DNA of 61,629 nt, the filler included, from Sphacelaria rigidula (Eukaryota), in assembly GCA_964200075.2 (NCBI GenBank). It is 7 parts of 7 records of this genome, joined end to end, with 100 filler letters (N's around TTAATTAATTAA, not from the genome) between each part and the next. Parts side by side here need not be neighbours in the genome. Positions count along the whole stretch, not along the records: positions 17,642 to 26,360 come from CAXNAA020010282.1; 6 more parts are not named here. One strand, given 5' to 3'. Of this stretch, positions 4,153-58,900 are shown piece after piece. Within the stretch, counting starts at the first letter, position 1. The number at the start of each line of letters is the position of its first letter. The notes below the pieces were generated by a model, which searched no databases, was not told the DNA's origin, and saw nothing but the letters and a program-made list of their open reading frames with translations. The position numbers were made by a program, and so were the translations under genes.

Positions 4153-7100
4153 ATGGCCTCCTACTCCATGGCGATGACGCCAGACCCTCCGAGCTTGTGT
4201 ACCATGCTGAGGCAGACGGGACAGCGCAAGACCATCGCGAATGCCTTGACCCAAGTGACTGCTCTCTCTTGCTCTGCTGAAGGGCTCAGGTTGAGAGGCC
4301 AGATTGCGGCGATTGGGTGAGGATGTCGATACAGGCCAAAGGGTATGACTCTAGCTGCTAGAGTCATACCCTTTGATACAGGCTGATCTCACTTTACACG
4401 AGTACTTCAGCAAGACTTTAGACCAAAGGAAAGTGTCGCCAGCGCGAAGACAGGAGCAAAAAGTAACAAACAGGTTTCCCGTAACCGCGTAGTAAAGCTG
4501 GAGTGTGCCGTGCGCTCTGATCGGGCATCCAGCTGCCGCCGTCATATCGAACAATCCCTGGACACCAAATACAGCCCGGTGGCGGTACCCGCTGGTGGCG
4601 ATTTGGTACAAAAATCAAGATGCATGGTTTTTTGTCCGATTACCGCAGGACTGGCGGACCTGTGTAATAGCTGACATTGAGGCTAGAACAACGACTCATC
4701 GTCATTCGAGAACTACAAACTGTTGAGGGAAATATCTACAAAAAGTGTGTCGGGTTTGCGTTCATTATTGAGATTTGCATATGTTGGATTTTTCGCTTAA
4801 GGTTTGAGAGTGAGGGTCTGAATTTTGAGGAGAGGACCAAATCGTTATTTTTCACGTCACCCTTGACGTAGTCAACATATATACTCGTATATGAATGTCT
4901 TTGTCCGAAAATAAGGGCAGATATTTTCCCCGTAATTCAGTAGAATAGACTTGACTCTAAAAAAGAGAGGCAGAACTTGTTCGAAAATTGCTTCGCAAAT
5001 ACCGATTTGCATCTCTCCTCAAAATCGCAGGTCCTAACTCTCAATCTTCGAGCGAAAAACCCGGGGTCGCGCTTTTTGGTCTCAAGTAGTGGGACCAGCC
5101 TGTACAAGATATATATATATGATGCTTATGGGCATACGTCTCACCATCTCCTATAGCTGTCATCCCACTCGTGTTCGTGGGCGTCTACAACGGAATGCGG
5201 CGGTGACGTTACAGTGAAGACGCTGCTGTTGACCCTATACATTGCCGCGTGTCCCCATTATGAGAGTAGTTCCCTGCGAATTAGGGTGCTCTTATCGTGT
5301 GCGAATAATAATCGCCAACCTCAGTTTACTCACATTGCGCGGTAGCACTAGCCAGGTACGATCCAGTGGAGGCTCCTTTCCCTTGCACGTGGTATGTGTT
5401 TTTACCGTACTGTGTAGTTCATAGGTGCATCAGAAAAAAGTAATGCATCCGTTCATTAGATCACGCTCGCAAAGCATCCCCAACATTCAACATTCCATGT
5501 CGTGTGTATGTTGTGTTGTCATCTCATCTATCCTGCACGCCAGTCGACACCTTTCGATACGTGCGCGCATCAGCCGGGGTACAACCGAGAGAAGCTACAT
5601 ACCACCATGATACCCGCATTGCCAGTTATACTGTACTGTACATGATGACCCACCACCACTTGACCGTCCCCACTTCGTCGTCGCGGCATGTGCGCTCCCG
5701 ATCAATGTACTGTGAAAGAGGGCTTGAGTCGATAGAAGCTATCGTCATCTCGTCTGACGATGACGTACGTCTACAGTGCAAGGCCGCCAGCGCCCTTGGT
5801 TCTTTGTGCAACTCGGCTGAGGTGGCTAGGCGCTTCATCTCCAACGCAAGGAGTACCGCGGTCATGGAAAAGTAAGTCGTTGATGTCACTTCATATATGT
5901 ATGACACGGCGGTAAAGATTCTGAACGTAAACCCTGCAGAAATATGAAGGAACTACGATACATGGTCACATCTGGCGGATAGCTGCCATTTCACCATTTT
6001 CTGGACAAGGTGTGCCCGGCGTGCGACGCCCGACTTGAACACGCACGTGCTGACATATAGTATCCACTGCGCCATGTTTGGGCCCAATCAGCTTCACACT
6101 TCTTGGGTAACATCCGCCACCCTATATTTTAGTCTACCTAGAACCAGAAAAGTAATTATAAGCGATCCGACCTGATGACGTTTAGGCCCCCGCTCTTTTT
6201 TCGCAGGCTTGGTGGTATGCTGAGATCGCCCAATGCATGGGCGCAGGCGGACGCTGTGGGATGCCTAGGGTGGCTCGTGGGGAATGGCATGACCTCCGAC
6301 GCGCTTCATGAGCTGGTTCCCATCGTGACGCGTCTGCTGGGTAAGCACAACGAGTGTCCTCCGCTCCTGTCGAAGGATGGGAAAAGAGGAAGTAGGGCGA
6401 CGAGCGCCGTTGGAAACGGGAAAGGAGGGGCGGGCTACAGGCGGGAAAAGGTTGGCGAGGTGGAAAGACGACAAGAAGTTGCGCAGGAGCAGATGGATAA
6501 CCTTCGCGTCTACACGTTAATATTTCTTCTCAAGGTGCGCACGGGCTGCTCGAGAGTGTTGTGATTTTTTTGTCCATTTGCCCCCCTGTCGTCTGCAAGC
6601 ACTTGGCAATCGCGGCTCTAAGCGCTCCGTACCTCCGTCGATCAAAACCATGCTACGTCCTGTCGCCGTTCCCTGAGCAAAATTTAGCAATACGATGACT
6701 GTCGATCGAGGATTCTAGTTTCAAACTGCTGCTCACAAGCTGCACACGGATGTTTTCCTAGTTCCAAAACGCGAGAAAGAGCACGCAAAAAGAGCATGCG
6801 CGAAGTGCTGAACACAACGAAACATGAATTTATTTTGTCCTCTCCTTGTGTTTTATTCCACATCTCAACATGTGTATTTGCACGCACATAGGCCACAAGC
6901 GCGGATCCTTCGACCATGCCAGTGATGCTGGCCAACGAGGCCCTTGACAACCTGTTGGAGATTCTTTCGACTGCGTGCGTTGATCGTCCTACGCACAAAA
7001 ATCCAGACCCTAATGGTCGCGCGACCGCAAGAAGCGGGGGAGCACAGGGCGAGCACACGGTAGACGAGCAGGACCCTTCTCTCGTGTTATGCGCAAAACT

Positions 7101-8939: not shown

Positions 8940-11900
8940 ACCCGATACCGCAGTGCGAGAACCTGTACTTGGATGACGCTATCGCCTTCGATGCCTCCCC
9001 TGTTGCGCATGTACGCACTTTACGAGAGTTTCTTTCTCGCCTACCGACGCACGATTTGAAACTGTCTCCATCCGAAGCTCACCTTAGCGCGGCTGAATTG
9101 GATTTCCTGGGACATTCAATTTTACCGGCGGGCTTACACCCGGAGACCAACAAATTCAGAGCAATGACTGAATTGCCGATGCCCACGAACATCACTCAGC
9201 TCTGCTCATTATTGGGTGGACTGCCCTACTATTGAAAACGTTTGCCTAACCTGTCCAAACGGATTCGCCCCATTACGGACTTGCTTTGAAAAAAGCGGCG
9301 CGTTTGTCTTCACCAAAGGCATGGAAGCTATCGTTCGCGATTTGCTGAAAACACTTACGGAGGAACCGGTTCTCTGTTTCCCAGACTGGGAGGCGGTGCA
9401 AGATGGCTCCCGCCTCTTTCAAATGCAGACAGACGCCAGCACCGATGGGTTCGGCGCGGTTTTGAATCAACCTTAACTCGATGACTCTGTTCGACCCATC
9501 CTCCATATCAGCCGCGCCACCCTGCCAAACAAGGCCAGCTGGAGCCCCCTGGAGTTGGAAGGCGGGGTCATCACGTGGGCCATCAAGCGCCTTCGACAAT
9601 ATCTGTTCCACGTGCCCAAATCTACACGGATCACGGAACAGTTATACAACTCGCCAAGGTTGGCGAACACAACTCGCGTGTGCAACGCTGGTTGGAGTTC
9701 CTGACAGCTTATCAGTATCCTGTCAAACACCGCCCAGGCGAAACCAATGGGAATGCTGACCTTCTCTCCCACCTGCTCCTTCCTCCAACGGTCGTAAATT
9801 TCTGCCTAGCTTGTCGACGAACTGAACCCGATGAACCAGGCGTGTACCCTATCCGGCGTTTCTCCACCCCCATTTACGCCGTTGACATTTATGCACAAGG
9901 GCGGCCCTCGCCCCTTACCGTATGATGCAGTCTTGGGTGGGCTGAAGTCCACAGATGCCGATTTCGTCGATTTCCGCACTATCGGCACTCGCGTAAATAC
10001 TTCAGTTCCGCCACCTCCAGCTGTCCATCTCATATCCGACAATACGCGCTCTCGGTCTTCCGCCCGCGCCAACCCTCCCCGCGCACCGCCGCCACCGACA
10101 ATACCTACTGCTCCTACGAGCAACGTAGCACCGGCTCCCCGCGACGTCGAACCACGAGCCTTGGCACCACCCGCCACGCGCAATTCTCGCAACAAGCGCC
10201 AAGCACGCTCCCCGGCGCGTACTACTTCGACAACGCCGCCCTCCGCGGCACTGCCACTGCCCGCTCCTTCTGATGATCCCGATGTACATATCGACATTGG
10301 CACCTCCGCCCCGTCGCCTGTTCCACCGCTCCCTGAGCCGCCATGCCTGGTCGGCTCTCCGGCGGAAGGCAAACTGCGCGAGTTCCTCGCCAGTTACTCC
10401 CATCGTGATTGAGCTCGTGAACAACACGCAGAACCATTATGCCGCGCAACCATGCGGTACCTCCATGCTGGCTGCCCTGCGTCTATCCCGCCCGATGTTC
10501 TGGCTCCCGTTGGTACAATGCCACTACCAAACGCCTCTGAGGTGCACGAACTCGCACGTAAAGGTACTATGTTCACAACTGATGACGGTATTCAACTGCT
10601 TGTCCGCCGCTCTACGCCCCAGCCGGGTATAACTTCACGCGCGACCACTGGACGTCACGCACGCCTACTCGATAATAGACCCACTCCATCTATGTCCCAT
10701 TTGTGATGAGATCGTGGGTACAAAAAAGCTGCCACACTGACCTGCCTTGCCACCATGGTGTCACGCGCACATTAGCGTCGCTCGAACGTTTCTATTGGTG
10801 GATCGGTACGAAAGTGTCCACCCACTTCTGGATTCGGCGATGCTTCAAGTGTCAAGCTCGCAAAACCTCACAGCAGACAATATGTTTGCCAGTCATTTCA
10901 ATGGCACTTCCCAACGCTCCTGGTGATCTCGTGTCTTTCGACTATTTCGGTCTTTTACCGATCGCTGACCGTGGCAACACCTACTTCCTCTTCACCGACC
11001 GCTTCAGCCGTCATGCGTCCGTGACGCAGTCACCGCTAGAGACTTCATAGCAGCAGGCACAGTTAACGTCTTAGTTCACGACTATATTAAGCACTATGGT
11101 TGTCCGAAACGACTTCTCTCCGACAATGGTCAGCAATTTTGCTCCGATCTCTCGGACGAACTGTATAGTTTCCTGTGCATTCGCAAGATAGCCGAGAGCG
11201 CTTACCACCCTAATGGTAACGGTGGTGCTGAGAGAGTAAACCGCACCATGGCCCAGATGCCATCTATGGTAGTCAGCGATCGTCAAAAGCATTGGGATCT
11301 CTATCTTTCACATGCCATGCTGTCTTATAACAACTCGATCAACGCTGCTACCGGTCTTTCTCCGAACGAGTTACATCTCGGTCGCTGCCCCCGTCTGTCC
11401 ATCACCACGTTTAAAAGACACACCTTCGATGGCCGCCAAGGCTTGGGTCAGGATCAGATGCCCTACCATGACCTGGAGCGTGCACGCCAGCGCAAAGTTT
11501 TCATTCTCGTGCGTGAACAACACGCTATCAACGCTTTGCGCATTGAGAGATCTAACAATACTATCTACAACTTGATATACAAACGCCCTACTTGGAAAGT
11601 TGGCGAGTGGGTCTGGGTTGACAAAAGCTTGTCGATCATCCGCCAACGCACCGACAGAACCGCCAAAGAGACAGTCTTTAAGACTAAGTTATCACTTAAA
11701 TGAACAGGAGCATTCAAGATTTTGACCGTAGGGCCCTCGCCATCGTCACCTGATGGTAAGCCTGTTGGTGACAAACTTCTTTATCTCGATCTCCCTCGCG
11801 ATATTCAGGGACATGACGCCAAGTCTCGCGTCTCTGTGCACCGTTGCAAACCTTGCACAAACCCGCATGACACTAGCGACATGTCCAAATATCTGCCTGC

Positions 11901-17641: not shown

Positions 17642-18239
17642 ATCGTAGGATGACTCCTCAAAAACAAGTTCCAGCGCCTCAGTCACGCCCAAGCAAGGTT
17701 TATGGGCAACATGCCCCACCATTGTTTTTCTTTAATTTCACACGTGGTACAAGGCTTAATATGGCACGGAAAAAGACAACCTGTGGGGGTACCCTCTTCT
17801 TTTTTGTAAACTACGGGTGCTGAGATATTCGGAAGGGCTGAATGAATAAGGTTTTCTTATTTTTCCCTTTCTCGCCAGATATCATCGTGGAACCTCGAAT
17901 ATCTGACGATTTGTTTTTCTAAGACCCCATTCATGTAGCCCTTCCGAAATCTCAGAGCACCTGAATGCAAACTTACAGGGCCTAACTCCAGAAGACGGCG
18001 TGAGCAATCGCTGGGGTGTAACTTCCGGTCGTTCACCCTGAACCAACCTCAATGATCTGTGTGACGCTCTTTCACGCCGAATCTCACATGTTTTGATATT
18101 CCCCGTCTAGATGACAATATATATCTCGACACTCACAGCGGCTGCAGACAGAAATCAGGTTGATATGTGTAGCTTAGACGCATAGCTACCCGCCTTCCAG
18201 GTTCTGGTGGCGTGGATCCTTGCCGCAGATGAAAATATC

Positions 18240-18263
18240 GGGGTAGAGTGCGTGCGTGCGTGC

Positions 18264-18294
<31 letters not shown>

Positions 18295-18832
18295 TTTTGT
18301 ATGTTATCCCATCTATTCTGGACGCCAGTTTACGATGAACCGGTCTTTCCGGTGGCTCAGTTGGTAACTTCGAAACCATCTGACGGTTAGGTCGTGCGTT
18401 CAAATCTCGAAGCGCCCAACAGTGGAGAGCGACTGTGCCGCGGGTACACAAAATATGACTTAACGGTCGACGAGGGAAGGGGACTGCTGTACCGCTCTCG
18501 CGATAATAGATAAAGGCAAGCACCGCAGAAGGAAGTTAGAATAGTACTAGAAACCAGACAAAAACACAAAAACTCCTGTGTTGACCTTCCTCCTGTGTGA
18601 CCCCGGCTGATGCGCCCACATATACCGAAAGGTGTAGACCGGCGTCCAGAATAGATGGGACAAATATGCGGGGGCACAGCAGCCGGGGTCACACAGGCGG
18701 AAGGCCAACACAGGATATTTTTTCAATTGATTTTACGCTTTTTCTTTTTTTGTTCCTCACACTTTGAACCCCTCCCCTTCCTCGGGATGAGTCCGTGGTC
18801 TCAAGGGATCAACCCATATCTCCCCCGGTACG
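18240..18832. mobile_element. cluster of tRNA-SINEs: minus-strand 3' tail with (CA)n, full plus-strand copy 18340-18660, and opposite truncated copy 18662-18832
   Basis: TGGCTCAGTTGG A box at 18353 and a degenerate B box gcgttcaaatc. The shared 3' motif ggcgtccagaatagatggga occurs on both strands. Inverted arms at 18574-18623 and 18664-18715. Confidence 0.75.
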
Positions 18833-20943
18833 TCTCGAAAGTAATAAAGGCTGTCTGAGCTGATTCTGGAGACGTATTCATCACCGGTTTGTGCGCCATA
18901 CTGGAGGGAAAGGGGCCAGACTTCGTTGAGGACATAGCTTCAGAGGTATAGTACAGTGTGCATCAGTATCATCGTGATTTTGTTATCCGTTTACCTCCGC
19001 CACGTCTTCTTTTTGGGGTGGTGATGAAGAACGTGACACTAAATTCGTCGTAACATAAAGAGAAGAGGGTAATGCTGATTCTTCGGCGAACGGAAGATGA
19101 CTTCACATCTTTGTGCACGCTGTCTGTACAAAAGTAAGGCCCTGTTCGATCGGGAACAAAAAAAGAAGCACTGGTGACCAATCACTATGCTGCTCTTGGA
19201 CTCTTGTTTCGTCTCTTGCTCTGTCTCGATGAGGCAGCCGGAGGACCTTCCGTGTCGTATCAAATTGTATTCGACTCAAGAACGTGCGGCGGAATTAAAT
19301 TCGCTCGTAGCTGATACGTCCAAGTCATTTATTTTCTCATATGATTGAGAACATGAATGCCATGCACATCTCATGTGCAAGCGAATTCGATTCCACCGCA
19401 CGTTTTCGAGACGAAAACAGTTTGTTAACGGGACCAAAACAAGAAACATGGAACGGAACAAGCGTCTGAAATCCAAAAGCACATGTTGACTGGTCTGGTC
19501 ACCGCGATACTACCCCGCCCGGTGGCCAATCAACGTGCTGCTGTTGGACGCTTGTTTCGTTTCCCGCTTTTTCTTTCTGTTGTCTCGATAAGACGGAGTC
19601 CAAGAAGTAGTGATTGCGCCGCACACACGCTGCCTGAAGCAATCAGCGAGCGGTTTATGAGCTGTTCCATCACACGCTTGTCTCTTGATGCATGATGAAT
19701 GATAGAGAATATGATACTGCGTCACAGTACTTTCACCGCGAGAAGAGGGCGTATGTGCTGCTTCTTGGGCATACCTTATGACTAACTAGAAAGGGGGGGC
19801 GCTCGTTGTGACGGAGGCGGAGCGAGGGAGGTAGACCACGGAATCATAGATCCAGCATGCTGTCGTCCGGTTGCTGCCTGCTCTCTCTCCTGCTGGCTTG
19901 TGCCATAACGTTCTTACCATCGGGTGGAGCAGAGAATATGCCCGTTGGCTCCTTCATTTCATCGATGGTCAGTGTGGTGAAATCCCTCTCACGAACAAGT
20001 GCCGCGTCTCAACAGATGTGGGAATGCTTGTAGCATCACCCACGGTCTTGCAGAGGTGTGCCTTGGGCAACAACAGAGTGGCTCAAGAGTATACTCGTAC
20101 ATTTGAAGTAGATCACGATCATGAAAACATGTTGCGCCCCTGGCTCCAATCTCGACGGCTGCGTGTCGAATCGATTTGCATGTGACTATAGTACAGTAAG
20201 TAGCTCATGTATATATCATTCTTGTTGTTCGTCACGCTTATGGATGTTGGAAACCGAGGAGGTCAACGCCGCCGCCATTGTACAACTATGCAGTACAGAC
20301 CGGCACTTAGAGAGACCTCGTGCACCACAAGCGCAGGTACGGCCTTACGCCATATAACCAGGAATCAGTACAAGTTCCGAGCGCTGATATGTGTAGCGGT
20401 GTACCCTAGTTGCGGTCGTGTTCTTTTTCTCCGCATTTCAGGGCCGTTCGCAAGGAAGCAATTTTCCCTCGTTGCATGGACAGTAGACAACAGGTTAGGT
20501 TGACCCTTCGACCGCCAGCATCAACGTCACTTGTAATACTAACGGATGAGCTAGACGGCCTACCCTCGCGGTCAAGGAGTTAAAGCGCAGTTTTTTTTTT
20601 CATTGTAGTATTTGTTACCATCAAGGAAATCGCGTCATCAAGGACAAACCTTGGTCCGCAATATGTGTCTCCATCTGCGGCTCGCCGGAAGCGCGCCACC
20701 AAAGGTGACGCTGCGAGTCAGGCAATGCGGTGGGGGTAAATAATCGGATACAAGGCATGACGGGAGGTTTGTTATCGATATCCGCCTCCAGTCGTAGATT
20801 TATACCTCAATGACAAGAGAGTCGTTTAATGCTCGATTTTACTTGATCCTGAAGCGGAAGTGTGTATATTACTGCGTCGATGTACTCTTCTGTGAACGTC
20901 ATACACCCTTTCCTCTTTCCCAATCGATCGTTCCCGATGATAG

Positions 20944-23900
20944 CTCTTCTGGGACAGCACGGACGAGAAAAAGCTCGTTCGCGCCGTTGTAAAGGATGAT
21001 CAGGCGGACGCCACCACTCCGCGACGGGATTTTATGCTGGACATGACCTTGTACTCGGAGTTCAATGAGTGAGAGGCCTCGTTAGCTACATGCACCACTA
21101 GCTTTGACAGTACTCGAGTTATCTTTGCTTGTCGGGGGCAGAACCCCTGTTGTGCCCGGGTCAAGTATTTGCAGGTTAAGACTCAAGCACGAAGGGTAAC
21201 CCATGTTTCGAGGCAAGGGAAGCGATAACCCAAGAACGTAGCTCGTTGCAAATATGTGACATACAATCGTAGCGTGCTTTAACTTGCATTGGTCGTACTT
21301 ATGTCCATACCGTGCACTACCCATTCTTTCACGCTGGAAGTGTGAGTGGTGGTCTGAAAAAAACCCGCGTGTCATCATGATGCAAGAGTACACGAGGGTT
21401 CATATAGTGTAATTAACGTCAGCATGAATTTGGTGTGAATCACGTGCAAGTACCGTACTTGTATTGCAACAGCTGTCCGTCATATCTACACGCGGGCATG
21501 GCAGCATTGATACTACTGTGTAGCCTGGAAGAAATTAACAATCGCACAAAATGCGGCAAATACGTCGCTCCCAGCCTACATGTAGCAAGTCGATTTTTCA
21601 TGCTTGCACTGCAATGACTCTGAACTACATCCATCCCATATCTTCGTCAAACAATTGTAGGCTCGGTGCTGCCCAGTTCAGCATTTTACAAAGTAAAGGG
21701 CTGGACAGCGTGTGCTGGAGAGAGGCAGCGGCATCCATCGAGGCAGACTGTCAGACCATGCCACATGCGCGCAAGCAACGTCTAGCGGTCCAATTAAGCA
21801 ACTGCCACCTTCAGGTGAACGACCTGGGGTTGGCTTTCGGACAACTCGGACATGACGAATCCCCGTTCCTTTACGTTCTCGCTATGCTGCATGCCACATC
21901 TAGAGCAAAAATGACCAGAAATATCGCGCCGAGAAGAAAACTCACTTCACTTCCGTGCCATTTGTAAATCCTGCAGCATGACAAATAATGCTTCCGGAGA
22001 ACATGCATCCTCTCGAAACCCCCTTGATCTGCAGGACTCTGGCAGGAAGACTTCCCTCTGTGGACCAAACGACAGCGATCAAAATTGTGTTGAGTCCACA
22101 AAACACGACGACGTCGCCTTCCAAAGCTACACCACTTACTTTCACCACGTGAGTCTGAATGTGCGAATTTCGCAAGATTGTCCTATAACCACACGCCACC
22201 CTCTGAATTGATACGGTGAGGCTCACGCCGAGCTTCGCGCACAGCCGAATGACTATTACATGTCCGCCAGGATTACCGGGATAACCGACAGCTGTATAAC
22301 GCTTCAGCACTCTGTGACTTCGCGTAGACAGCGCGTAGATATAACTGCTGCTGGCGCATTCGTAGTAACCAGGACACACGATTTTTCACGACATAAAAGT
22401 ATTTCCCCCGCATAACTTTGCACCCGTTGAGAACGCATCCCTCGCTGGGGCGGCCGCGATGATCATGCTTGTGCTACCGTCCACTGCCCCAACGTACAAA
22501 CAACATTCGAAGAATGGCACATAGAGTCGCGGTGGCAGAGGGAGGAGCAGAGATCCAACACGCGGGGAGTTCATGTTAGAGTACACGCTTGAGCTGAGCA
22601 TACACCCCCAGTCTCTACCGGTCTCCAAGCATCTGACTGCTCTCCCTGCCGCTGCCGCGTCCGTACACACAACGTCTACCGTAAGGTGAATACCATATGT
22701 TACCATCTTAGTCATAACACCTGGCAGGATGAAACACAAGCACTGGTGCAAGGGCTGACGGCATCCTCTATCGCAACGTTTGACCGTGCGGAGATGGCTC
22801 TACAGAAGCAAGAGGAAGTGAGTCACTGCTCTGGGAGCTATGGCGTTAACACTGAAGACGAGGGCTACGCATTGCACGCATGGTCCGGACGGTTTTTCCC
22901 GTTTGGCCTACCAGAATATCCATGATTGATGTACGGGATTCAGTGCCCAACAATTACCTAGAGTGCTCTTAGTATATCTGTAAAAGATGTCAACTCCTTG
23001 TGCGAACTTTGCATAGGGCAGATAGTGGCAAGATTCACAGATACGCAGTGCAACATTATGCGCATGTCACGTTTAAATCTGGTTTGTGCAACCGGTCGGG
23101 TCGTTCTATAAACATTCTCCGGCCTTTTTCGCGCCATTGCTTTTCATGGGATCATTCGACGGCGCAACTACGTCCAATATCATATTTAGGTGTTACGAGG
23201 GCAGGAAAGAGCTTTCGAACAGAGCGAAGAGATAGCCTTGGGAGTCATTGAAGCGAGACTCGACTTGACCAAGCTATCGGGAAGCCTGTCCGACGAGCTC
23301 AAGATCGCGCTGGGAGAAATCGAGAAGCAGGTACATTTACAAATACATAACAGTATCATCATTTGGCTGGCGCCATGCTCCGAAAAAATGATGTCGCCAG
23401 CGCAAGTAATGTGCACGCGAGAATGTTAGTCCGCCAGACGAGCATGAGCTAGGTCGATGCCTGGCACACCGTGAGAACGTAAGAGGCAGGAAACGACGTC
23501 ATTTCCAGGGGTTACGTAATTTTTGGAAGTGATTTGCCTAGCGGAACCGTCGCCACGATATTTGTTTCAGAGCATCTAGAATCCTAAACGTCATACTCCC
23601 CTCACCTATTGGGGAGGCATTGGATGTTTGGCACAGAGGTTATCGAACGTTAGGGGTACTGAGTTTCCCTGTCGTATTACACAGTTATTTTCCACAGCCC
23701 GTTCGCATTTCACCCTGTATCCTCGGTTGTTCCGACTTCGTGTTACTCGTCGATGAGCCAGGAAATTCTCATGGCCAACCTTCTCGCTACTCAGGCTATT
23801 GCAGCTAGTCAGGCCAATAGCTTCTCGTCGGAGCTGGACGGTGCCAAGTCAGAGCTGGCAGCGTACATGAACGCTATCGAAGAAGACCGCAGGTAGCGCA

Positions 23901-24864
23901 TCGAGCACACGGTTGGAATGTAGAGTGATACGCTTAGAGATTCAGTAGTCCCAGTAGAGGTCATCTCCGATACGCGTGTAAGTACACCGGAGAAGGTGAC
24001 CAGGTACTCAGTGCACTTTGTGATGAGATGCACAAAAATAAATATGCGCAGCTAGTAGGAAAGTAAATTGAGCATATGTCCAGGTGCTCCGTTTTTTGTC
24101 CTCGAGGCAAACATACTTGACCTCCTGTTGCTTCGCACCGCGGCAATCAAGCGTCCACGTCAAGCACATATGTTGCTCTCCTGGATGCGGTCGCGCGGAG
24201 AAATGTTAAATGGAAAATAAACGGAAATGCAGCTACTGCTCAGCAACCATATTTTATCGCCGACAGAAGCGCGACCCGCTCCCGCCAATCGATCAAACAG
24301 GAAGACACGGGACCAGAATACAGCCTTGGCCGATACGATCGGTTTCATTCACGACTGTCTCGAGAATGCCACTTCAGCGTGGGCCAGGTTCCAGGCCTTC
24401 ACGTGAGTGCTTTCCTACAAAGTCTTCTCTCGCTCGGCATGTAGATTGGGAAACATGAAAAAGCAGCGCCGCCGAGTAGAAACCCACAGGTATTGACACA
24501 GTATTGCCGTCATGTTGCAGAAAAAACACAAAATTGTAATCACTGAGAATGACGACAGTGTGACTGCAAGGAACGTCGGTGACATAACGCCTCCGTGTAG
24601 CTACAAAACCTGGTTAGACTCCCGTGGGGGCTGGAGTATTGCTGAAAGAATTTGATGTGACAGTTTTAGTCTCCGTGCACCAGGTACATGATTCTATCCG
24701 CCAACCTGTGTTGGGTCATGACCACTCCGCCACCGCTGCGCTCGGCGAGAACGGGTCTGTTCGTACTGGTGGCGTTTGGCCTGCTATTGGAGAGACATGT
24801 CTGCGGCGATCCGTCTTCTTTCTCTTCGGATTCTTCCTCACCTTCGGCTGCCGTCGATCCCCTC
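20944..24864 (+). CDS. GEX1: GEX1/KAR5/Brambleberry-family nuclear envelope fusion (karyogamy) protein, partial
   Basis: Phase-compatible GT-AG exons 20944-21068, 21661-21814, 22035-22148, 22686-22817, 23190-23330, 23795-23892, 24244-24402 and 24684-24864. They splice to a six-Cys domain (CWREAAASIEADC...RLAVQLSNCHLQDSGRKTSLC...CVES...AFQSYTTYFHHVNTICYHL), then a coiled coil, then TM helices (YMILSANLCWVMTT..RSARTGLFVLVAFGLLLER). Signal-peptide exon and last exon(s) not located. Confidence 0.88.
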
Positions 24865-25719
24865 GTGAGTTATCCCATCGAGGAAAATCGATGATTCTGT
24901 AGGTGGGACCACATCAAGACACCAATTGATTGCTCTGATAATTGATAATTGCGCACTCACCGAGCAGCTTCCAGCTGTAGTCATTAGATAGACGTGCCCA
25001 AGGGTCAAGAAGCGGGAGAGCACTCCTTGGGAAGGGAGAAAAAGTAGAAAGGAAATTATGGAAGGGAGAGACAGAAATATTGGATGAATCTCGAAAAAAG
25101 GAAAAGAAAAGACAGGGAATGAAGCGGAAATAACACACAAGGAAAATCGACGGGCGCAGATCTTGTACCGGTCCCGAGAGATAAACTCCGACGGGCCCCT
25201 GTCGCATGGTTTGCAAGTACGGAGATCGTATAGAAATGAAATTAACATCCAAACAAAACATAAAACAGATCAAAATATTGAAGGTAGGAAATATATTATC
25301 AAAAACATAGTGAACAAAGACAAGGGGGAAGAGACGAACGAAACAGAAGGTAGGGAAAGGATGAAGAGAGGTTAAGGAGCGAGAACGTTTCTGCGAGGAA
25401 GGCCGAAACCACGATCTGTGGTGTTGCAAAACATGTTTCGTACGCAACGTATCCCCGACTACGCCTCGGACAATATATGGCAAATAGTTGCAACAGACGA
25501 GTAATATACTGCGGAAAGTATAGGACTGTTGCAACTATTTTCGGCCAACAATAGTCCCAATAGGCATATAATTTACGCGGCACATGTCTTGTCTATTGCA
25601 ACTGTTGAGAATATATTGTACGAGGTGTGAATATCTCTAGTTGATGCTCGCAAACGCGAGAGTGGCAACCCCTTGAAAGAAACACCGCTTGAAAGGGTGC
25701 AACGCGCGGTATCGGAAAT

Positions 25720-26140
25720 TCTGTGCGCGGGGGGCGCAGGCATGTAGTCGAGGTTCCTAACGGAACTTGTCATGATGATGGCTGTGATGGTGGTCGGTCA
25801 GCAGTTCGGACTACTGTAACGATATTGGAGAGAAAAAATAGAGACCATGCCCCTCCGGTCTGTCACCAGCTGCCCACCGTCCGCATTGCACATCACGGCA
25901 GCAAGGTAACGCCAAAAGTAGACGACCGCGTTTGTCTACCTTGGTGGTGCTGTCAGCGCAGACGCGAATATTTGAATCGGAATCAAACGCCGCATCAGCG
26001 ACGCGTTAGAACGCCTCCAAAATTACAGTCGCCGACTATACGATCGACCCAACGCCAATTTGTTTTCGAAAACCCGGTTGGTTGCTCGAAGCGGAGGTAG
26101 TGGACACTATGTTGTACAGTTGTGCTACAAGGACACCATG
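25720..26140 (+). mobile_element. RTE-like LINE reverse transcriptase C-terminal relic
   Basis: Degenerate SRFLTELVMMMAV..FGL, FVYLGGAVSADA, IKRRI, LYDRPNA and AEVVDTMLYSCAT motifs with stops and frameshifts. Confidence 0.75.
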
Positions 26141-26186
26141 CCACGGGCAAGATGTTGTTGTGTTGAGTGTCGCCCATATCTACTAC

Positions 26187-26187
<1 letters not shown>

Positions 26188-26239
<52 letters not shown>

Positions 26240-26276
26240 GCAGCAGCCGCAGCAGCAGCAGCAGCAGCAGCAGCAG
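26188..26276 (+). repeat. (CAA)n(CAG)n microsatellite
   Basis: Directly visible. Confidence 0.95.
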
Positions 26277-26360: not shown

Positions 26361-26460
26361 NNNNNNNNNNNNNNNNNNNNNNNNNNNNNNNNNNNNNNNN
26401 NNNNTTAATTAATTAANNNNNNNNNNNNNNNNNNNNNNNNNNNNNNNNNNNNNNNNNNNN
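26361..26460. other. artificial contig spacer
   Basis: N44-TTAATTAATTAA-N44. Confidence 0.99.
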
Positions 26461-26919: not shown

Positions 26920-28330
26920 TCCCCCATCTGGGATACGGATATCCGTTTGGGCTCACACACTCGTCGAGGATGTTGGGAGATCCTTGATGGATATCCATCC
27001 GGAATATCCATCTGGCATCCGAGCTCCATTTAGGACATTCATTTAGGACACGAGCACGCATCTAACAGCCGATCATCGAAATTGAGGACGGAGCTTTTCA
27101 TTGAGGATGAGAACCCGGAGAATTAAAATCTTCGTATCCACACCAAATCTTCGAAATATGGTTCATTTCCTTCACCTTCTGGTAGATATTGACAACTGCT
27201 ACACGCCCTACAAATTTGGATTTCGATAAGTAAAATGCTGGGGTCCTAGATAAAGAAACAAGTGTGGGGGATTCAGGTGATTCAATGATCGCCGAAATTC
27301 CTCGAAATTGTTTTTTCACCGCGGACCCCAACATTCCGGTAATCGAAACCACAATTTGCATGACGTGTAGCGCTTGTCAATAGCTACTATTGGGTGAAGA
27401 AATGGGAGCACATTTCGAAGATGTGGTGTGTATTCGAAGATTTTAATCCTCCGGGTTCTCATCCCCAATGAAAAGCTCCATTCTCAATTTCGCTGATCGG
27501 CTGTTGTCTGCTTCATGTCCAACTAGGATATCCCAGGATCCATCTGGAATATCCGCCTGAGACGTCTATCTGGGATATGGATACCCATCTGGGACCTCTG
27601 TCAGGGACGTCCATGTGAGACATGGACATCCATCTGGGATCTCCATCTAGACCTGGGATATCCAAGATGGATATCCAGTCGAACGTGGACATTTACGTGG
27701 GAAGTCTTGCCCGCCGATACTACTTTCTTCTTCGGCAGCTTCTTACGTATAGCCGAAACCAACCCCTAGAGCCCATATCGTAAGCCTACCCTCACACCGT
27801 GAACAGCTTGTGCGCTGGTGACCATAAGTCTGGGTTGGCGTGCGCTGGAAAAAGCATCGTGAGGAGCGCGTTGGTAGGGCATACATCTGGGCTAGCGTGT
27901 GCTGGTGAAGCATAGTCCAGTGTGCGCTACCAGGGCAAACATCTGAGCGTTGGTGAGGCACAGTGCAGGGTGCACTGGCAGGACATACATCTTGGTTAGC
28001 GCGAGCTGATGAAACATCGTAATGCGTACAACAAGCAAGGTGAATGTTCTGGATAACATCTAAGATGGGCGGGAGCTACCAGATGGGCTTCCCGGGTGGG
28101 TATTGGGTTCCCGAAGAATGCCCCGTTCAGATGGATATCCCACGTGTATGTTCCACGTGGGTATCCTCGAAGAAAGTCCTTATCCCTGACAGATGTCCCA
28201 GATGGGCCTCAGTTCCCATACAGATACATCCCACATGGGTGCCCATACGCCAGATTGGTTTTCGTCTGTGATATCTGAACATACCACACGAATATAAAGG
28301 CCCACATGAATATCCCAGATGGATATTCCT
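26920..28330. repeat. GGATATCCATCTG-motif element with oppositely oriented motif arrays
   Basis: ggatatccatctgg motifs at 26920-27030 and 27525-27700. Reverse-complement cagatggatatcc motifs at 28060-28330. Degenerate internal tandem repeats at 27800-28020. Confidence 0.65.
27064..27505. mobile_element. palindromic MITE (same family as 51562-52003)
   Basis: aacagccgatca...cccggagaattaaaatcttcg is mirrored by cgaagattttaatcctccggg...tgatcggctgtt. Confidence 0.85.
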
Positions 28331-46923: not shown

Positions 46924-48183
46924 GGCAAGCCATATTACCCGATAATGTACATACACTCCGCCACAATGCAAACTGGCCATGAACCGACAACGTGTGGCAG
47001 GGCAGCCTCACACATTCAAGCGCAGTCGAGGTCCCACTTCAACGCCCCAATTTTTTATCGTTTGAATAAATTGATTGTCGCACATAAACCCGTGACGATC
47101 CCAACTGTGGGCACGAGATGGACATGAGATAGACATGCCCATCGTGAAGACTCGGAAACACTCGCTGAAGGATATTTGAGAAAGCGAAAACGGGAGGAAG
47201 AAGGGGGACAGAGTAAGCTGAAACCGCAAAAAGTAAAAATTGGAGGGGTAATTAAAAATGAGGGAAAACTATAACAAAAGCACCAGGCTAAAAAAAGATA
47301 TATGAACCGATGTCGAAAAATGAATAAGAAAACAGCGGGCCCCTGCCGCATGGCTTCCGTTGAGGCGGACTAGCAGGGAAAACACGTGGCCGTCGAAGCA
47401 GGTTGCGACTCAGGTTTCCGAGGACCACAGCTCTCACTCACGAGCACTGCAGGAACAAGACACAGTCACTAATTCAGGATCATAACAACAAAAGTAAGAT
47501 GAGACGAAAGGAGAAGAAGAGAGGGAAAAGGTACGAAAAAGGAACAAAGAGAGGAGAGAGGGAGGAAGCAGAAAACACGAAAAAATGAAATATTGAGAAG
47601 AAACGGAGAGACAAAGACAAGGCAGATCTTTATTGCACAGGAATAATACTAGAGAACATGGCTAACGTTGCAAGACAAGAAAACAGGTCGACAAGCGATG
47701 GAACGAGGCAGTGGCACGCGCTACCCCCGCCTCCCCCGCCCATCCCTAGCTGGCCGGCGGCGAAGCGGGCCACTCTCTCGATCGCTCCCGTCTTGGATTT
47801 CTTGCGAGCTGTTGCTGCTGCTGTAGCTCCACGGGTGGATGTTCTATTTGGCGACTCTGGGCGCAGCAGCCTATTTGTGGAGTAGGTCTTCCGACCTGTG
47901 ACTGTGGCCAGCACATCGACGCTACGAACACGCTGCTTCTCCCCCCAAAGCAGCACAGCAGTGATGTAGCCGTGCATTGCCACAGGATTTGAGACTAAAT
48001 CTCGTGTGCCTGTTTCCTGTTGTTGGAATTTCCTGCCGTTCCGAAAAAAGTGACAATTTTTTCATGTACAAGTGTGTACGTTTTTCATGTCTCGGGCTAG
48101 ATCTCCTCGCGCGCTCGCTACAATTCATGCCTCACCGATATGTGGTCCTTTCTCCTTTTTCCCCACTTAATTTTTCTCATCAG

Positions 48184-49802
48184 GTGATGGATCCCGGGTG
48201 GGAATCAAGGGGGTGGATGCCTTTCTCATCGCCCGACTGAACGACAGCAGCTCCTACTTTTTCACGTGGTTCTGCAAACGCTACAGGATCCGGATGTGCG
48301 ATCCGGACTTAGGAGCGAAATTGGAAATCTACCGGTGCCCAATTTGCATGGACATGTGCTCCAAGTCCGTCGAACTCTCGTGCGGACACGCCTTCTGCCG
48401 TCCATGCCTCACAACCTCGGCCGCCAATAACATGACATCGTGCGCCCTTTGCCGGCGCGAGCAGGAGCTCAACCCTGAGTTGCTGCGTGCTCAGTTTGAC
48501 GAGCGGCGAATGCTGAATCTCGCACAACGCCTGGCAATTCCAGCACCGTTGCGTCCACGCCAGCCCACCACCGGCTTTTCTGCCCCAGTTAATGTCGGGA
48601 AGAAGCCCAACCTTGCGTCTGCATGCTCCGTGATCGGCGGCGGGAAGAGCGTGCAAGGTCAAAGGGGCGACAAGGCAACACCTTCATCTTCATCCGCGGA
48701 TTCCATGACCACCCGCGGCCACTTGCTGTTCGGACCGTGGAGTAATGTCGGCGCAATGACACCGCAGGAACTTCGCCGCCGTTGGAAGCTCACCCGCCCC
48801 ACTTCGGACGTTGGAGCCATGAGTGTGAAGAAACTAGCGTCTTCGTGGCAAGAAGTGCAGCGTATGTCGCGCGCTTCTGCTGTTTCTGTCGGTGAACACG
48901 GTGCTTCAGGTGCTCCGCGTAGTGCTACCTCCTCACAGGAACCGTTACATGCACCGCAGGGACACTCCGCGTATCGTTGGTCCGGAGATATCGCTGCTTC
49001 CCACCACGCGGCACCCGGCGGCAGCTCGTCTGATCCACATGAGTCAGCTGCTGTCGTGACCACCAACGATTTTTCTGTGGGATCGACGGGTCCAGATGAG
49101 CTCTCGACCCGCTGGCGTGCGCTCAGGCGCGTCCCGTCGGCAACGGGCGTTCGGCGACCTTCCAGCGTCTTGTCCGGGATCTCAGCCGTTGATTGGGCTG
49201 AAGTGGAGCCATTACAGACCACCGCATACAAAACGAAGCACATGTTGCCGCTCACCTGCGCCGAGAGAGTTGAGGCAGACCCCGTCGACGTCGGTGCTTG
49301 CTCTCATGATATCATGACCTGTACCCGAACCGTTGGATGCCTTGCAAGTGGCGATCTACGCGAGCGCTGGCATAAAGCGTTCCAAGCGCTAGACAGTTGC
49401 GTGGGGGCTGTGGCAGTTGGTGATCTTGCGGTTCGCCTGGCCCTCGCGAAAGGCCCTCAGGGTGTAGGAGGGATGCCAAGCGCGGACCTAGCTACGCGAT
49501 GGGTTTCAACTGTTGTACAATACTCGGGAGGCCACAAGCACGAGCGTAGGTCGAAGAAAATTCCTCGGTTAGAATTTACGCTTGCACCGGCTGAGGGAGT
49601 CGGGGTTGGCACTGCGAAGCGAGACGCGGAGGGGTGCCCTAGTCACGACACGGTCAGAAGAGAACAGCGTTTTACTTCCGCGTCAAATCCTGTAAGTCCT
49701 ATGTCGTGCCAGGACGTCGGCGCAGCAAGCACCAGTAGCTTGTGTACCAGGTGGCGGAATGCACGCGGGGCTGCGGGACAGCCTGTGACGTTTTTGTGCT
49801 GA
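48184..49802 (+). CDS. C3HC4 RING finger protein (putative E3 ubiquitin ligase) with C-terminal VGxxxxxxLxxRW repeats
   Basis: 1.6-kb open frame. RING CPIC-x11-CGHAFCRPC-x11-CALC at 48336-48452. Acceptor tttttctcatcag| at 48183 suggests this is a long final exon; the first in-frame ATG is at 48294. Confidence 0.85.
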
Positions 49803-51561: not shown

Positions 51562-52003
51562 GACAGCAAACACGGCATTTTACAAATTGGAGGTGGATTT
51601 TTTAATTGGGGATGAAGACCCGGAGGATTAAAATCTTCGTGTCTACACCAAATCTTCGAAGTATGTTTCCATTTTTTCACTTGCTGGTAGCTTTTGACAA
51701 CTACTATACGCCATACAAATTCGGATTTCGATTACCGAAATGTCGTGACCTCAGGTGAAAAACCAATTTTGGGGGGTTTTAGGTGTCCGATCGGACGCCA
51801 AAGTTGGTTTTTCACCAAGGACCACGATATTTCTGTTAACGGAATCTAAATTTGTATGGCGTGTAGTAGTTGTCAATAGCCACCAGCAAGTGAAGAAATG
51901 GAACATGTTCCACAGATTTCGTGTGGAGACGAAGATTTTAATCCTCCGGGTTTTCATCCCCAACGAAAGACCCATCCCCAATTTGTAAAATCCCGTGTTG
52001 GCA
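51562..52003. mobile_element. palindromic MITE (family of 27064-27505)
   Basis: ggggatgaagacccggaggattaaaatcttcg is mirrored by cgaagattttaatcctccgggttttcatcccc. Confidence 0.85.
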
Positions 52004-55991: not shown

Positions 55992-58900
55992 CTCTTCCAG
56001 TATCTCGAGAGACTCTCCCGATAAGACCATGACGGCGCCTTCTTTCACCATCGCGTCTTGATCTCCACCCAATCCCACGGCAAGATGGTGCCCCGACGGC
56101 GGGGAGAAGACCAACGCTCTAGCCGCAGAGTCGATTCTTGTTTTGGCCGTTGACCGTTTCAGGCTCACGCTCCACACCTGTGGACGCCGACATCATCGGC
56201 ACATCGATACATGAACGCACAAACAACCGTCGTGTGTGAATTTGTTGGCGATATCCACAACTGGTGAACGTGTTCAAAAGTGCAACATCGACGTAAGATC
56301 CGATATGTTTCATGTCACAACTGTAGACAGCATTCTCAACAACATGGGAAATGTGGCCAATACCATTTCCAGGCTAACTCTACATATTTCCTACTTTGAT
56401 TCTGATAGAATGGGGATTTTGCCGCGCAACGGTCTGACGAGAAATATAAGAAACCGTACGTGGATGTCCCAATGTTGGTGAAACTATCGATCGCGTGTCT
56501 CTACAAAACATTATTCACACCAGTTGCGAAAAACGAGACGTCGAAGAAACAAAAGATCGGGTGTAGCTCCGCGAAAATATCGAAACCGATTCCGTCAAAG
56601 TTTTGATGTACTCATGATCATGCATGCCATAGTCATACCACACTTTTAGGTGGGGTAAAACCAGACACCAACACGCTTGATAGTACATGAGACGACTCCG
56701 AACCAAAACTCAGGACTGATGGATTCACCTTGAAAGCACGATCTTCAGTGTAGAATCGGAGATCATACGAAGCTGTGAAACCGTGCTCTCCACGTTTCGT
56801 GGAGGGCGTGCACGTACCGGCATTATATATTGGGACGCTGGGGAACATAAACCATGAAAGCCTCGCAAGATGCCCGAGAGCTTGTTACATGCGTACCCTG
56901 ACAAAGGCATCGTCGCCGACGGTAGCATAAACATCCGGATCCTTCGGATGGGTCGCCAGCCCTTTGAGCTTCTTCTTGCCATGTCCCTCCGCCAGCAAGA
57001 GCAGTCGCCCACTAGTACAATATTTTCACGACGGTGAAAACAGTTGGGGGGGGGGGGGAACAAGAACGGTACCTAGTCGTGGTAGTGGAGAGAGATCGTC
57101 GAAGGATCATCAAGCCGGGCATTTAGTGCTGCGCAGGAGGTACTCTTCATCGTCAAAACCCCTACCCCGCCAGTGTCCCGTTGGCGGGCCTCATGTCCCC
57201 AGAGAGTTTCGATGCAGTTTGAGCACACCGGTTGAAGGTCATGCGGAACTCCATTTTCATGCAGCTTCGTGTGCGCTTACACAGGATACTCACATATCTT
57301 CCCTCCAACGACATACACAAGCAAGGTCACGACCTCAAAACGTGGCCAGAAGCCTTCTTGCGGAGGGCGCATATCATCCACGGCTAGCCCGCAGGTTCAA
57401 ACGTTGCAGTCTTGTGACCTCTAACCCGTTACCGTTCTTGAACGTTGTAAAGTTTTCCCCAAACGTACCTGTCCCTGGAAACTTCGAAAATTTCCCCAGC
57501 GCGCGTGCAAACGACGAACTTGCACGCAGCTCCGACCGCGCAGACGCTGTGCAGCACTGGGCTTGCAGGGCAGGTTTCTTGAATGGCGTACTATTTTCGT
57601 TTCGAATGGTGGACAGCAAAAGGTATATACCATGTCAGAATTTTGACTCGTTGAGACACCCCACTCAGCGAGGCTGTGCATGCCATCTAGTGGAATGGCG
57701 TGCTATGTTCTTCTTGGTTTTCGTGGTAGATTACGCGACCGTGAACAAGATATATTGATGGAGCTGGGTGTGGGGCCGGTACGCGCTACACCGACGTCTT
57801 CGGGATATCAGCCGTTCACCTTGCATTCCTGAAATATGATGAAAAAATGGTACCGTGAGCATCCTCCGGCCGGGGCTGCCCATCTTCGCAAATAGATACG
57901 GTACCAGCTACCGGTCATCCCATTAAAAATTTATGTTCATCCACTGAGTGGATAACGTATCCACGCGTACGTGGGAGTTTGTTTAACTGCTGCACGCTTC
58001 TCAAGATGGCACTCGTCGTGTGCCTTTTGTCATGCATTACAAGTCATGTACCGTATGTAGGGTGTGTACTCCGTTCTCCACCTGCTTCAGCTTTTGGAGC
58101 TCCCCGTCCCATAGCCGAACGAACCCGTCTTTTCCAGCGGTCACATAACCCTTCGCGCCCACCTTGGCGACGGCGTACACCGGACCCGCGTGCCCGGGGG
58201 TGGTCCTCTCCACTCTGTGCGCCTTTCGGGGTTCAGAATATCGAGTATTGCGATTTCGTCCGTTAAACATGAGCGCTATGTTGAGCCTTGTTAACGCGAA
58301 GCTCACGAACGAAGTGTCGACGAACAAGGGATTGAGCCCGTTCAAGAACACCAACCGCTTCCCCGTCCTGTGAAGACTGTAAAAATCCCGGAAAAAACAA
58401 CTCGAATATGTTTGTTGTGTTCTCCATACTATACGTAATACGTGGCGGAGACACGCGGTGAACCTAAGCGGGTGATGCAAGACATAAGTGCAAGTATGGT
58501 ACCGACGCGTGCGCCCTGGCATGGAAGATGGCGCATTTATATTCCCTGGATTCACACGGGCAACAAGTCGGAGTTTAAGCATGCTCGGCCACAGCGGGAT
58601 TGTTTGTACGTACGACAAGAGAGAGGGGGATGATCTATGCAGTGTACAGCGATCGCCATACTTTTGTTCTATTTACCAAAGAGAGCATATGGATCAGGTA
58701 CACTAGAAATGGTGTCTATGATCTACGGATGTCTGCTGATGAGGAAATATAAGTGACTGGGCGCCTAGCTGTAGATCTGTAGTGACCCGGGTTGGCCGGG
58801 TTCTCCACGTCTTGTTTTCGCCGAGCGCTCGCCGTTTCAATTTTGCACAGGTGGTGAAAGGGGAAAAACGAAATGCGACAACTTACATAACTTGACTCTA

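Follow-up and report, generated by a model that had tools for sequence, protein, structure and literature searches.

A split gene of the GEX1/KAR5 karyogamy family in the brown alga Sphacelaria rigidula, seen without its last exons

Eight short open segments at positions 20944-24864 of a stretch of Sphacelaria rigidula DNA raise the question whether this brown alga carries a gene of the GEX1/KAR5/Brambleberry family of nuclear-fusion proteins at this place, and whether that gene is whole. The stretch, here called the window, comprises 61,629 nucleotides (nt), filler included, from assembly GCA_964200075.2. The locus is an ordinary split gene of the GEX1/KAR5 karyogamy family, with nine short exons at 19857-24864 on the + strand. 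As seen it is incomplete, because the window lacks the exons that encode the last third of the brown-algal protein.

The original prediction had described eight GT-AG exons (here E1 to E8) that join in phase, and this was confirmed. All eight are preceded by an AG acceptor and followed by a GT donor (GTGAG at six donors), and their phases are compatible (0,2,0,0,0,0,2,2). Joined, they give 1080 nt, an open frame of 360 codons. It had also suggested a search for the missing signal-peptide exon and final membrane-helix exons, of which the former (E0) was found in the window and the latter were not. E0 sits in an open frame at 19812-20030, in which the ATG at 19857 is the earliest. Its first 25 residues are hydrophobic (Kyte-Doolittle 2.26) and line up with the N-termini of the orthologues, and a signal peptide is predicted from this hydropathy. 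The hydrophobic stretch is followed by 'MPVGSF', a motif that the Undaria and Ectocarpus proteins also have after their signal peptide; the match of E0 to the brown-algal profile introduced below is weak (E 2.1). Since E0 carries a start codon and is in phase with E1, the start of the gene lies inside the window. The nine-exon model has 1191 nt, encodes 397 amino acids, is open throughout and contains eight introns of 220-976 nt. The exons and the sequence that follows them are given here, with E-values from the brown-algal profile:

19857-19967, + strand: E0, start codon and predicted signal-peptide exon, 37 codons, GTCAGT donor.
20944-21068, + strand: E1, weakly conserved linker N-terminal to the cysteine-rich domain, phase 0 to 2; profile E 1.9e-3, matched by tblastn to residues 61-117 of the Ectocarpus protein P0003.
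21661-21814, + strand: E2, start of the cysteine-rich domain with cysteines 1-3 (CW-x10-C, NCHL); profile E 5.5e-29.
22035-22148, + strand: E3, cysteine-rich domain with cysteines 4-5; profile E 5.1e-17, also matched by tblastn.
22686-22817, + strand: E4, cysteine 6 (ICYHL) and beginning of a long helix; profile E 1.2e-19.
23190-23330, + strand: E5, helical or coiled-coil region; profile E 2.9e-11.
23762-23892, + strand: E6, helical or coiled-coil region; profile E 3.4e-19.
24301-24402, + strand: E7, 34 codons; profile E 7.3e-16.
24684-24864, + strand: E8, two hydrophobic segments flanking a conserved TPPPLRSAR turn, then a serine-rich stretch; GTGAGT donor; profile E 5.6e-23.
24865-26176, + strand: sequence after E8, in which no further exon was recognisable by profile, tblastn or motif.

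When E2 alone was used as a query against longer proteins, five matches were obtained. One is a 138-residue read-through open reading frame (ORF) that is 100% identical, and the other four are proteins of Ectocarpus siliculosus, Ectocarpus sp., Undaria and Hapterophycus at 78-80% identity. The E. siliculosus match (P0002) is CBN75731.1, which serves as the Ectocarpus GEX1 query in the accessible part of PMC6678668; the same excerpt cites a survey for the prior report of GEX1 in E. siliculosus, and the accessible text of a 2026 preprint names 'E. siliculosis GEX1'. The spliced product of the window matched two Ectocarpus proteins of 632 and 633 residues (P0003 and P0014) by blastp with 62% identity over 367 residues, and a Laminaria fragment (P0008) with 67.5% identity over 311 residues. 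In the reverse direction, tblastn of the orthologues against the window matched E1 to E8 in order. A profile built from nine brown-algal sequences likewise found E1-E8 colinear in the six-frame translated window (profile positions 43-386), with independent E-values of 5.5e-29 to 2.9e-11 for E2-E8 and 1.9e-3 for E1, all remaining rows having E >= 2.1. On these sequence comparisons, the spliced product is an orthologue of the brown-algal proteins that include CBN75731.1.

Along its length, the window product resembles Ectocarpus P0003 in the order of signal peptide, six-cysteine domain, helices and TPPPLRSAR membrane motif, and its intron positions agree where read-through fragments show them. 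The exons encoding P0003 from about residue 385 to 632 are not in the window. E7 occurs in P0003, P0005 and P0008 and is missing from the gene models P0002 (E. siliculosus, CBN75731.1) and P0004 (Undaria), so that the window gene contains an exon omitted by the CBN75731.1 model; it also has the serine-rich stretch that ends E8. Among ten brown-algal models aligned, two omit E7, one omits E4 and the short exon after E8, and one has an inserted stretch. The expectation that such genes are easily mis-annotated was thus borne out. The accompanying statement that no single ORF shows the gene holds for the stop-to-stop ORF track; annotated models do exist in related brown algae. In the databases searched, the only protein identical to this species' gene was the read-through ORF fragment, and a scan of metagenome_contigs gave 185 pattern matches, none of which was confirmed by tblastn. 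A profile search with alignment A2 against a word-indexed database returned 13 proteins only, none a named GEX1 or Brambleberry: nine labelled as brown-algal, and four fragments or unlabelled sequences closely similar to those nine.

The wider family was reached with the Ectocarpus protein as query in an exhaustive phmmer search, in which 636 proteins had E <= 1e-3, 220 of them E <= 1e-10. We aligned 100 distant homologues from animals, amoebae and other protists (15-34% identity) with the Ectocarpus query and built a profile from these 100, with brown algae left out. This distant-homologue profile matched the spliced product with 210.2 bits (E 2.5e-63) across both the cysteine-rich domain and the membrane-helix motif, against a best score of 6.9 bits for 1000 shuffles of the same sequence. 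The assignment to the GEX1/KAR5/Brambleberry family made in the original prediction is supported by this match and by the orthologues. All six cysteines of the predicted domain are present in the spliced product (residues 97, 109, 127, 139, 148 and 173); among 101 family members, the six corresponding columns are invariant or conserved in at least 90%, and the distant-homologue profile also aligns them as the family cysteines. The quoted motifs CW-x10-C, LAVQLSNCHLQDSGR-x4-C-x8-C and YTTYFHHVNTICYHL are literally present, whereas the signature RSAR..LF..L...LER had been given with a spacing two residues short; the stretch in the spliced product is RSAR-TG-LF-...-LER.

Direct blastp matches of the spliced product outside the brown algae include Asterias P0049 (94 bits), Hypsibius P0131 (84), Naegleria P0065 (70) and Pinguiococcus P0165 (65). 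In UniRef, P0131 is named 'Protein GAMETE EXPRESSED 1' and P0165 'Nuclear fusion protein KAR5'. The other clusters looked up include Asterias, Branchiostoma, Lingula, Aplysia, Pecten, Sycon, Naegleria, Balamuthia, Acrasis and Chrysoparadoxa. In the ESM Atlas, a 'Kar5' and a 'GAMETE EXPRESSED 1-like' cluster are among the three nearest to the Ectocarpus orthologue (both 0.91). The Pfam model PF04163 (Tht1-like nuclear fusion protein; curated cut-off 21 bits) matches the cysteine-rich domain of P0002 with 24.5 bits and of Ectocarpus P0003 with 24.0 bits, at profile positions 57-162.

Several results weigh against this assignment. Of 20 clusters whose names were looked up, no more than 2 are called GEX1 or KAR5, the rest being uncharacterised or oddly named. 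PF04163 matches 1 of the 101 family members at E <= 1e-3, which indicates that this model barely reaches the present branch. The Undaria (P0004, 20.2 bits) and Hapterophycus (P0005, 15.6 bits) proteins, half of the four named brown-algal orthologues that were scanned, fall under its cut-off. The single-exon peptides E1-E8 gave no Pfam match at E <= 10 (0 of 8), each exon being too short to register a domain that reaches only about 24 bits in full. Finally, the C-terminal third of the protein was not found on either strand of the window, neither with the brown-algal profile nor by tblastn with five further C-terminal fragments. The lack of single-exon Pfam matches is also what could be said for a chance concatenation of open frames, or for an unrelated cysteine-rich membrane protein without a role in nuclear fusion. 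Against both stand the exon-by-exon colinear matches with E-values down to 5.5e-29, the gap between 210 bits and at most 6.9 bits for shuffled sequences, and the orthologues P0002 and P0003, which pass the PF04163 cut-off; we consider either explanation very improbable. Taken with the points above, we are highly confident that the locus is a GEX1/KAR5/Brambleberry-family gene of a brown alga.

According to the accessible parts of PMC4291462 and PMC7586128, members of the family have a signal peptide, a domain with six cysteines, between one and three coiled coils, and two or three membrane helices at the C-terminus. The window product shows these features, except that of the C-terminal helices it has only the first two hydrophobic segments, one of them marginal. 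GEX1 of land plants, Chlamydomonas and Plasmodium shares, by its description in the excerpt of PMC7586128, the signal peptide, the six-cysteine domain, coiled coils and C-terminal membrane helices; it is described with three membrane helices, whereas the window holds two hydrophobic segments only. For Kar5p of S. cerevisiae and Tht1 of S. pombe, the shared six-cysteine domain is where PF04163 aligns to the brown-algal orthologues, and the lumenal coiled coil and C-terminal helices correspond as far as the available portion of PMC4291462 describes them. These fungal proteins are very distant, with about 24 bits in the orthologues and no match for the single exons of the window. On the Brambleberry side, the orthologue significantly matches animal homologues (Asterias, Branchiostoma, Lingula, Aplysia, Pecten, Sycon and Hypsibius), of which Asterias P0049 and Hypsibius P0131 are likewise significant with the spliced product; identity is about 22-23%.

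The long coiled coil of the original prediction is supported by a proline-free stretch at residues 176-332, in which 66 of 130 windows are heptad-like, compared to 33.6 +/- 13.8 in shuffled sequences; by this crude test, 6 of 500 shuffles scored as high. As for the predicted membrane helices, one hydrophobic segment is clear and the other marginal: segment 357-378 of the window product passes the hydropathy threshold, while the preceding segment passes in the orthologue P0003 (332-354) and stays below the threshold in the window product. An AlphaFold2 model shows the Ectocarpus orthologue as all-helical, with a mean predicted local distance difference test score (pLDDT) of 69.6 and a predicted template modelling score (pTM) of 0.40. 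Its pLDDT exceeds 90 for about residues 70-220, helices span 155-255 and 270-348, and the cysteine-rich domain continues into a 100-residue helix. Foldseek gave no match in the PDB at E <= 0.001. A sequence search of solved structures matched 14 sodium channels (E 0.001-0.0055) over the membrane part only, and these were judged spurious.

We propose that the encoded protein begins with a signal peptide, continues with an all-helical domain of six cysteines and a proline-free, coiled-coil-like stretch of about 150 residues, and then has two hydrophobic segments. The analogy with Kar5p, GEX1 and Brambleberry suggests insertion into the endoplasmic reticulum and the nuclear envelope, with the cysteine-rich domain and the coiled coil in the perinuclear lumen. 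There the protein may act after gamete fusion, by fusing the envelopes of both nuclei, a step for which it would be required. This karyogamy role is suggested by family membership; literature searches, limited in reach, found no functional study of a brown-algal GEX1.

The brown-algal orthologues have three more exons after E8: a short exon, a long exon and one for a conserved C-terminal tail. The long exon encodes a third hydrophobic helix followed by a low-complexity stretch, and no brown-algal sequence that reaches this part departs from QE.IRW.TFQ. Inspection of the translated frames after E8 gave no further exon. A motif search for the three missing exons returned one 'RWITF' at 6491 only, which is spurious, and a weak upstream tblastn match of the orthologue tail, at 18370-18471 (E 0.87) and unseen by the profile, was dropped. 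The N runs of the window, two of 44 bases at 26361-26460 among them, are too short to conceal the long exon of about 570 nt. If the donor of E8 were unused, the frame would continue for 9 further codons to a stop codon at 24892-24894. The tail itself (last 40 residues, columns 650-690 of alignment A3; P0003, P0005, P0007, P0016 and others) resembles a SAP-like helix-turn-helix motif, with no such Pfam match at E <= 1.

Independent assemblies cover the locus and part of what follows. A contig from run X1 spans 19530-25955 in one piece without any difference to the window, and a contig from run X4, a different study, spans 19530-26176 in one piece with 21 substitutions and 2 indels. Because single contigs from two studies span it, the 1.3 kilobases (kb) after E8 are real. 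The X1 and X4 contigs end beside a repeat and the microsatellite (AAC)17(CAG)13, and the window beyond is without independent support. Inside 19857-24864, the changes between assemblies amount to 8 substitutions and 1 indel, all of them intronic, with none in the 1191 exon bases. This is a weak sign of exon constraint, since chance yields an all-intronic pattern about 9% of the time. Run X5 gave scattered low-depth pieces only. In run X8, presumed to be RNA, reads fell on repeats only and none on the gene bins, which has no bearing on expression.

The incompleteness could stem from a very long or interrupted intron, from an assembly join beyond 26176, or from a real truncation. We think it reasonably likely that the gene is whole and its end not shown, either through a mis-join at the repeats and microsatellite just past 26176 or because the intron after E8 is longer than 36.7 kb. 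The short-read contigs stop at 25955 and 26176, beside (AAC)17(CAG)13 and a repeat, which fits such a mis-join. The gene contigs have depths (73.3 in X1, 30.9 in X4) similar to those of unique contigs nearby, so there is no sign of a second, collapsed copy, and the exons look constrained. No result obtained counts directly against a mis-join. Two points weigh against a giant intron: a RING-finger ORF on the same strand (48171-49799) would fall inside it, and the other eight introns measure only 220-976 nt.

A real truncation, in which a rearrangement or insertion in the intron after E8 removed the last three exons and left a decaying remnant or a shorter product that stops just past the second hydrophobic segment, as in the two-helix layout of Kar5p, seems to us fairly unlikely. 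It would account for the three downstream exons being untraced in the following 36.7 kb or elsewhere in the window, and for two assemblies agreeing over 1.3 kb past E8, more than the largest other intron of the gene (976 nt), even if an intron of more than 1.3 kb is not unusual as such. The stretch after E8 also contains repeated DNA (25208-25789) and the microsatellite (26188-26276), and its divergence is higher, with 11 substitutions in 1312 nt compared to 8 in 3817 nt of introns. Kar5p and Brambleberry, moreover, are described with two membrane helices in the available portions of PMC4291462 and PMC7586128. Against truncation, none of the nine exons is damaged, their splice sites are canonical, and the assemblies do not differ within them. 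The donor of E8 is kept where the orthologues splice, as inferred from the read-through fragments P0061, P0102 and P0119, and all brown-algal sequences long enough to show them conserve the third helix and the tail. Among 201 flanking stop-to-stop ORFs (105 and 96) scanned with Pfam, four matched, and no transposon protein domain was found downstream of E8, so that the scan revealed no intact inserted element; a self-comparison of the window revealed no long repeat pair flanking the region after E8. That the last three exons are truly lost, leaving a shorter Kar5-like two-helix protein or a gene starting to decay, we hold to be unlikely. The second of these outcomes, decay, would be expected in a lineage that had abandoned sexual fusion; every other brown-algal orthologue keeps the helix and the tail.

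Just upstream of the start codon, 18224-19678 holds very high-copy dispersed repeats, with a summed contig depth thousands-fold over the flanks in all four runs. These are probably elements of the miniature inverted-repeat transposable element (MITE) or short interspersed element (SINE) type. A 93-nt unit at 18568-18660 recurs at 2098-2190 with 93.5% identity and, together with about 18680-18720, makes up a long inverted repeat. A stretch at about 18350-18420 is tRNA-like, and ARAGORN calls no tRNA there. The palindromic hairpin at 19249-19437 matches the Rfam MIR2630 precursor on both strands with 37 and 35 bits, compared to a gathering score of 144, and is most likely another inverted-repeat element, not a microRNA gene. 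Further features of the window are the following:

9168-11047, + strand: pol remnants of a long terminal repeat (LTR) retrotransposon, with RT_RNaseH_2 at 22.7 bits (below cut-off) and Integrase_H2C2 at 36.5 bits (above).
26188-26276: microsatellite (AAC)17 then (CAG)13, just before which the X1 and X4 short-read contigs end.
27079-27490 and 51584-51984: repeat of about 410 nt, 76% identical and matching in both orientations, hence palindromic.
48171-49799, + strand: ORF of 543 codons in which a C3HC4 RING finger (29.5 bits, cut-off 21) lies close to the N-terminus; going downstream, this is the next gene that could be recognised.
58040-58672, - strand: ORF with a weak WD40 repeat match (20.2 bits, under the cut-off of 27).
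8722-52912: six pairs of 44-base N runs spaced by about 8817 bases, which look like masking, as opposed to assembly gaps.

The family is well known, and an Ectocarpus member is already in the literature, as the accessible part of PMC6678668 documents; the window gene is one further orthologue. The ten models aligned here indicate that gene models of the GEX1/KAR5 family are error-prone in brown algae. Brown algae are known to be sexual and, with the Ectocarpus gene already described, the gene therefore adds only another orthologue to the family. GEX1/KAR5 is among the few sequence markers of sexual nuclear fusion across eukaryotes, and its presence therefore supports a working sexual cycle in this organism.

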